From: Patescibacteria group bacterium
GTDB lineage: Bacteria > Patescibacteriota > Patescibacteriia > Magasanikbacterales > GWA2-37-8
DNA: 1,144 nucleotides
Assembly: GCA_004321885.1 (NCBI GenBank)
Contig: SCQK01000027.1
Coordinates: 1-1,144 of the forward strand
Direction of reading: 5' to 3'
The notes under the pieces are model-generated. The model saw nothing but the letters and a program-made list of their open reading frames with translations. It was not told where the DNA came from and ran no database searches. Shown here one piece after another: positions 215 through 1,144 of the stretch. The position numbers and the translations under genes were made by a program. The first letter of the stretch is position 1. Each line of letters starts with the position of its first letter.

Positions 215-1144
215 TCACGCTCGCCTGATATTTGCGCCGAGTTCGCGCAGGCGCTCGTCAATTCTTTCATAACCGCGGTCAATGTGCCCGATATCCGATA
301 TGGTTGAGCGGCCTTCGGCGGCGAGCGCCGCGATTAAAAGCGTCATGCCGGAACGGATGTCCAAACTCGCCATATCACAGCCGGTTAGTTTTGTCCGGCC
401 GGCGATGACCGCGCGATGCTGATCCAGTATTTTAGCGTCAGCGCCCATTTTCCGCAACTCGGCAATATAGCCCAAGCGCCCCTCGTAAAGCCAGTCGTGG
501 ATCAACGATTCACCTTCGGCCTGCGTCGCGAGCACCGCGAACGGCGGAAGGTGATCGGATCCAAGCTTCGGATAAAGGCCCGACTGTATTCGGAACGCCC
601 GATATGGCGAGCGCGGCTTCGCGATGGCAAGAACTTCGCCTTTCAAGAGAACGTTAACTCCCATTTTGCCTAACTGCAAGAGCACGGCCTCAAGATAGCG
701 GCGGTCAACTCCGCGAAGAGTTATCTCCGATCCGGTTGCCGCGGCAAGCGCTGAAAAACTGGAAATCTCCAGTTCGTCGGCGTTGATCGTATGAGTCGCT
801 CCATGAAGCCGCCGAACTCCTTCTATCTCCAAGATCAGAACGTCGCGCCACCGGATGTCCGCGCCCATTTTCCGCAAAAGCGCGATCAATTCCTGCACGT
901 GCGGTTCGCAGGCCGGAAGATGGATGACGGTTTTTCCCGGAGCGAGCACTGCGGCAAGAATCGCGTTCTCGGTCGCGGTAACGCTTGATTCCTCAAGCGT
1001 GATTTCATTTCCGCGCATGGGGCGGCCGTCCATTCGGATGAGTTCGTTGTCCTCAATTTTCACACCAAGCCCTTCTAGCGCGCGAAAGTGCGTTTGCAAA
1101 GGCCGTACGCCGATAGCATCCCCTCCGGGACGCGAAAGTGTCGC
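215..1144 (-). CDS. murA: UDP-N-acetylglucosamine 1-carboxyvinyltransferase (MurA), 5'-truncated by the window edge. It runs from the window end to a TGA stop at 217..215.
   Basis: The 294-aa minus-strand ORF aligns by eye along its length with E. coli/Bacillus MurA. The C-terminus '[20 protein letters not shown]' matches E. coli '[20 protein letters not shown]', which includes Arg397. '[18 protein letters not shown]' matches E. coli '[21 protein letters not shown]' with the catalytic Asp305 position conserved. The L-x-x-MGA/LG repeat motif recurs as LRKMGAD twice, plus [16 protein letters not shown] and LRELGANI. The 'M' at 1099..1097 in the ORF track is an internal TTG Leu codon. The frame stays open to position 1144 and the extra 15 codons translate to [15 protein letters not shown], matching the E. 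coli active-site loop LPGGCTIGARP. The true start is therefore beyond the window. In E. coli numbering this is roughly residue 108 to the end. Confidence 0.93.
   Translation of the reverse strand, partial: [309 protein letters not shown]
441..457. repeat. Exact 17-nt direct repeat gcgcccattttccgcaa (copy 1 of 2) inside murA
   Basis: The identical 17-mer occurs at 441..457 and 861..877. The copies are 420 nt (140 codons) apart and in the same murA frame. Both encode L-R-K-M-G-A(-D) with identical codons. Confidence 0.9.
861..877. repeat. Exact 17-nt direct repeat gcgcccattttccgcaa (copy 2 of 2) inside murA
   Basis: See copy 1. The flanks differ: 458 is c where 878 is a, and 440 is a where 860 is c. 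Confidence 0.9.

Follow-up and report, generated by a model that had tools for sequence, protein, structure and literature searches.

The 1,144-nt stretch of DNA analysed here (the window) carries two minus-strand genes, most of a murA followed by the beginning of an mreB, and its main point of interest is an aspartate in the catalytic loop of the predicted MurA, at the position of the Escherichia coli cysteine that is alkylated by fosfomycin. Translated from base 1144, the murA frame stays open over 1144..218 and ends at a TGA stop (217..215), giving a 309-aa fragment that is identical over its whole length (100 %) to residues of a public protein of 419 aa (P0001), from whose full length all residue numbers below are taken unless fragment residues are named. 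Read on the opposite strand, the window matches bases 2576..3719 of a public contig of 4029 bp (L001; Logan SRR8426592) without a single difference. Against the NCBIfam MurA model NF006873, the fragment scores 323.9 bits (cut-off 297, E = 1.2e-96) and the full-length protein 443.4 bits. A phmmer search of all PDB chains found 32 different MurA sequences of solved structure, E. coli MurA among them (1uae, E = 1.2e-46), whose residues ~108-416 run collinear with fragment residues 1-308 (E 1e-54 to 1e-42). The predicted product of the window is a genuine, ordinary MurA, of which the 3' three-quarters of the gene are present. The named nearest relatives are MurA enzymes of Patescibacteria and Candidatus (Ca.) Sungbacteria, and the predicted host is an uncultured bacterium of the Patescibacteria (candidate phyla radiation) close to Ca. 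Sungbacteria. Coordinates of the features are collected in Table 1.

Table 1. Features of the window, with E. coli MurA equivalents where applicable.
Feature	Position in window	Strand	Description
murA, 3' part	215..1144	-	Residues 111-419 of a 419-aa predicted UDP-N-acetylglucosamine 1-carboxyvinyltransferase, plus TGA; 5' end lies outside the window
Catalytic loop (10 residues)	1100..1129	-	E. coli P112-P121; P, G, G, G118 and R120 (E. coli numbers) invariant in 120/120 homologs
Asp119 codon GAT	1118..1120	-	Aligns with E. coli Cys115, the target of fosfomycin alkylation
Arg124 codon CGG	1103..1105	-	E. coli Arg120; phosphate/phosphonate binding (role from PMC4790336)
Asp307 codon GAT	554..556	-	E. 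coli Asp305, proposed general base; Asp in 120/120 homologs
Asp372-Ile-Arg374	353..361	-	E. coli Asp369-Leu370-Arg371
Arg400 codon CGC	275..277	-	E. coli Arg397; Arg in 120/120 homologs
murA-mreB spacer	167..214	-	48 nt
mreB, 5' part	2..166	-	First 55 codons, ATG at 166..164, frame exits the window; NF010539 E = 1.2e-19, PF06723 E = 4.7e-19

Whether the aspartate truly occupies the Cys115 column is a matter of alignment, and the alignments are unanimous. In the printed HMMER alignments of the best four of the 32 solved MurA matches, the Asp stands opposite the PGGC cysteine; in that of E. coli 1uae, chain positions 109-415 pair with fragment residues 3-308, so that fragment residue 9, the Asp, falls on position 115. 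The same register emerges from a MAFFT alignment of the best 120 homologs with E. coli MurA, the latter serving for register only, with its landmark residues checked. Two multiple alignments and the pairwise HMMER alignments thus agree, and the column map from E. coli to the full-length protein reads C115 to D119, R120 to R124, D305 to D307, D369 to D372, R371 to R374 and R397 to R400. The original prediction had read a loop with an Asp codon on the minus strand, had equated it with the Cys115 motif and had taken the Arg that follows for Arg120: the minus-strand translation confirms the first, the pairwise and multiple alignments the second, and the invariance of that Arg in 120/120 homologs the third. 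The possibility it had raised that a proper alignment might put the Asp outside the Cys115 column is contradicted by every alignment made.

The substitution sits in an otherwise conventional active site. The equivalents of K22, N23, R91, R120, D305, D369, R371 and R397 are kept in the full-length protein and in 118-120 of the 120 homologs; that of R91 is read from the public contig, outside the window. The Asp itself is found in all 120 of the nearest homologs, which are 51-100 % identical to the protein, were drawn from NCBI, ENA, JGI and Logan assemblies, and include among their named members Patescibacteria, Ca. Sungbacteria, Parcubacteria and one metagenome-assembled genome labelled Methylomirabilota. 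Judged from this alignment, the surrounding clade conserves Asp as its native residue.

Elsewhere in the chain, the UDP-pyrophosphate contact segment reads SVTAT where E. coli has SVGAT (residues 162-166), the difference falling within residues 164-166 of the protein (window 977..985, minus strand); G164 is reported to be mutation-intolerant in E. coli (PMC9842644). We considered SVTAT as a possible signature of Asp-type enzymes and rejected it, as it is equally common in Cys-type sequences and is a normal variant of the family. Fragment residues ~58-103 (window ~836..970, minus strand) also give weak PDB matches to designed ankyrin-repeat proteins (DARPins; E 1e-7 to 1e-4), which over a helical MurA segment probably reflect compositional or helix-turn resemblance.

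What the substitution would mean for fosfomycin can be judged from well-studied relatives. When fosfomycin inactivates MurA, the drug becomes joined to Cys115 through a thioether, with K22, R120 and R397 holding its phosphonate, and the E. coli C115D variant is fully active in vitro yet insensitive to the drug (PMC4790336). Natural Asp-type MurA underlies the intrinsic resistance of Mycobacterium tuberculosis, Chlamydia trachomatis as well as Borrelia burgdorferi, and reversion of Asp to Cys in the M. tuberculosis and B. burgdorferi enzymes restores sensitivity (PMC4790336); fosfomycin was likewise inactive against Enterococcus faecium C119D in biochemical assays (PMC5652432). The present enzyme would be expected to take the enolpyruvyl group from phosphoenolpyruvate and attach it to the 3'-OH of UDP-N-acetylglucosamine, the first committed step of peptidoglycan synthesis. 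By analogy, the carboxylate of Asp119, a residue of the mobile catalytic loop, would replace the thiol both as general acid and in product release, and, because such a carboxylate would not be alkylated by the fosfomycin epoxide, the enzyme is probably fosfomycin-insensitive. The general premises of the original prediction, that a Cys-to-Asp change preserves activity while abolishing sensitivity and that Asp-type enzymes account for resistance in Mycobacterium, Chlamydia and Borrelia, both agree with the literature, the former with a qualification discussed below. Its proposal that this organism carries a naturally insensitive MurA gains support at the level of the enzyme by precedent; the organism itself may be resistant, which would further require that it lack a second, Cys-type MurA and would depend on uptake of the drug.

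Comparison with individual enzymes places the protein among known types. It resembles the Asp-type MurA of M. tuberculosis, Chlamydia and Borrelia, here compared by description only, in having Asp for the alkylated Cys within PGG[C/D]xIGxRP while keeping the other catalytic residues, but differs from these pathogen enzymes in belonging to the Patescibacteria and in being known from sequence alone. With the E. coli and Enterobacter cloacae enzymes (1uae, 1ejc) it shares the family, the length of 419 aa and the residues K22, R91, R120, D305, D369, R371 and R397. Identity to E. coli MurA is ~35 % (MAFFT, with the E. coli sequence used for register), and the protein departs from that enzyme in Asp for Cys115, Ile for Leu370 and the SVTAT segment. 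A PDB search with the loop region alone returned a solved variant, 6q0a, with the loop PGGDAIGTRP, and its parent, 6q03, with PGGCAIGTRP. We take 6q0a to be the C116D variant of Clostridioides difficile MurA; its Asp loop is near-identical to the one described here, so that an Asp loop of essentially the same sequence has already been crystallised, and it is the best available structural model, although in 6q0a the Asp was engineered into a Cys-type enzyme and here it is native and clade-wide. Another Asp-type MurA, AEW1_Fos01, comes from a soil metagenome; it shares ~92 % identity with a Mucilaginibacter MurA and rendered E. coli fosfomycin-resistant (PMC8066302). Both are environmental Asp-type enzymes, but AEW1_Fos01 has Bacteroidota affinity and came from a functional selection, whereas the present protein is a prediction.

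Several points weigh against an insensitive and fully functional Asp-type enzyme. In a saturation-editing scan of the chromosomal murA of E. coli, C115D was absent from both replicates (PMC9842644), which suggests that the variant fails to sustain viability in the E. coli chromosomal context, in qualification of the in vitro result, and tolerance of Asp therefore depends on background; its clade-wide conservation indicates that a compatible background would exist here. The N-terminal 110 residues, including the equivalent of K22, lie outside the window and are supplied by the matching public contig. Finally, a literature search returned no measurements of activity or of inhibition, whether on this protein or on another MurA from Patescibacteria, nor any paper on MurA or fosfomycin in Patescibacteria or the candidate phyla radiation. 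Taking these points into account, we still regard it as very likely that the locus encodes an ordinary Patescibacteria MurA with Asp119 for Cys115, predicted to be insensitive to fosfomycin and lying beside mreB.

The alternative that survives best leaves the enzyme Asp-type and insensitive but has the phenotype of the organism decided elsewhere, either by a Cys-type paralog, as in many Firmicutes, which have two murA genes, or by the lack of GlpT/UhpT-type uptake, a documented route to intrinsic resistance (PMC4790336). Only 4 kb of the source genome is available, and Cys-type MurA does occur in other lineages of the candidate phyla radiation, namely the two Saccharibacteria described below. 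Against this, Patescibacteria genomes are, to our general knowledge, small and reduced, with duplicated housekeeping genes uncommon, and a Cys-type second copy is not known to act in a dominant-sensitive way beside an insensitive one; we consider this alternative unlikely. Much less probable still is that the protein is some other carboxyvinyl or enolpyruvyl transferase of the 5-enolpyruvylshikimate-3-phosphate (EPSP) synthase superfamily (AroA, a NikO-like enzyme or a paralog with another substrate), to which the logic of Cys115 would be inapplicable. Pfam places the fragment in the superfamily (PF00275) and goes no further, and NikO and AroA structures are detectable in the searches, but at weaker E-values (1e-22 for NikO versus ~1e-54 for MurA). 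The full-length protein exceeds the cut-off of the MurA equivalog model TIGR01072 (423.1 versus 392.7 bits) and falls far under that of the AroA model TIGR01356 (93.1 versus 287.25), outside AroA membership, and these scores led us to reject an AroA or NikO identity; the full set of MurA catalytic and substrate residues and the adjoining mreB point the same way. An error of sequencing or assembly in the Asp codon might conceal a Cys-type enzyme, a concern raised with the original prediction, and only one contig from one sample carries the exact protein. This alternative is effectively refuted, since the first two bases of GAT both depart from those of TGT/TGC, which puts the Asp beyond the reach of one miscalled base, and since Asp recurs in all 120 homologs from independent assemblies and sources.

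If the enzyme is indeed an ordinary Asp-type MurA, it becomes pertinent to ask how widely that state is spread. A HMMER search run exhaustively over 1.84 billion representatives of 50 % clusters yielded 2214 proteins at E <= 1e-30, and the best 150 of these divide into 97 with Cys and 53 with Asp in this column, with no other residue; identity to the protein is 35-58 % among those with Asp and 34-46 % among those with Cys. In a neighbour-joining tree of the representatives, built with the Cys/Asp column masked, the protein belongs to a clade of 10 representatives, all of them with Asp. By parsimony, this tree requires ~23 Cys/Asp changes (20-27 over ten bootstrap resamplings) against ~44 for shuffled states, and a tree built by the unweighted pair group method with arithmetic mean (UPGMA) requires 25, although both trees are crude at this depth and the counts of switches are indicative only. 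Each passage from Cys (TGY) to Asp (GAY) takes two nucleotide changes, by way of Gly or Tyr. A scan of reference genomes with the protein recovered three loci, one in Doudnabacteria (L002) with the loop PGGDKIGARP and two in Saccharibacteria (L003 and L004) with PGGCIIGRRP and PGGCVIGSRG; it recovered no genome of the source species. Among environmental bacteria predicted Asp-type MurA is common, and it serves poorly as a taxonomic marker; the Asp had been offered as a weak taxonomic clue, and weak it is, but its value is slighter even than that, because roughly one in three of the neighbouring cluster representatives has Asp and the candidate phyla radiation contains both types. The literature search returned no genome-wide survey of Asp-type MurA. 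It is tempting to go further and to propose that the Asp type, rather than being peculiar to three pathogens, is the fixed state of a large Patescibacteria clade (Sungbacteria/Parcubacteria-like) and of about a third of the neighbouring MurA diversity, reached through some twenty flips, each of two nucleotide changes via Gly or Tyr intermediates that are probably inactive, but this we hold only tentatively, as a possibility somewhat short of even.

The adjacent mreB, whose 158-aa version on the public contig matches PF06723 with E = 2.1e-64, gives murA a putative cell-wall context, and because the 48-nt spacer between the two genes contains no promoter-like or terminator-like match, they are likely co-transcribed. 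The order of genes on the contig is rpsI, a predicted membrane protein of 465 aa on the opposite strand, murA and mreB. Upstream of the murA region, where the contig ends, is ribosomal protein S9 (rpsI; 26..454, plus strand of the contig; PF00380, E = 3.6e-40). The 465-aa predicted protein (624..2021, minus strand of the contig) has an N-terminal hydrophobic segment and is divergent from and upstream of murA; against Pfam it gave only a sub-threshold PEGA match (18 bits, cut-off 20.8) and no other family. The divergent intergenic stretch upstream of murA (contig 2001..2400) has 43 % G+C versus 50-62 % elsewhere on the contig, which fits a putative shared promoter region. Adjacency of murA and mreB is also seen in the two Saccharibacteria (L003 10001-11887; L004 116-1862), the second of which has a further mreB-like match at 6102-6560; it was not found within 10 kb at the Doudnabacteria locus.

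Naturally Asp-type, fosfomycin-insensitive MurA is already well known, and the protein described here adds a further predicted case, in the Patescibacteria; the understanding of MurA or of fosfomycin resistance is unchanged by it, and the only mildly novel angle is the breadth and evolutionary lability of the Cys/Asp state. Were the proposed history of some twenty flips true, it would speak for recurrent selection, perhaps by natural phosphonate producers or through thiol/redox physiology, or for frequent gene replacement, and target-based insensitivity to fosfomycin would be widespread in environmental bacteria. The case as it stands adds evidence that target-level insensitivity is common in the environmental resistome. 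For the organism, it provides a sequence-based prediction that the MurA of this uncultured Patescibacteria bacterium would not be alkylatable by fosfomycin, and the drug could then serve as a selective agent in the enrichment or co-culture of such bacteria.
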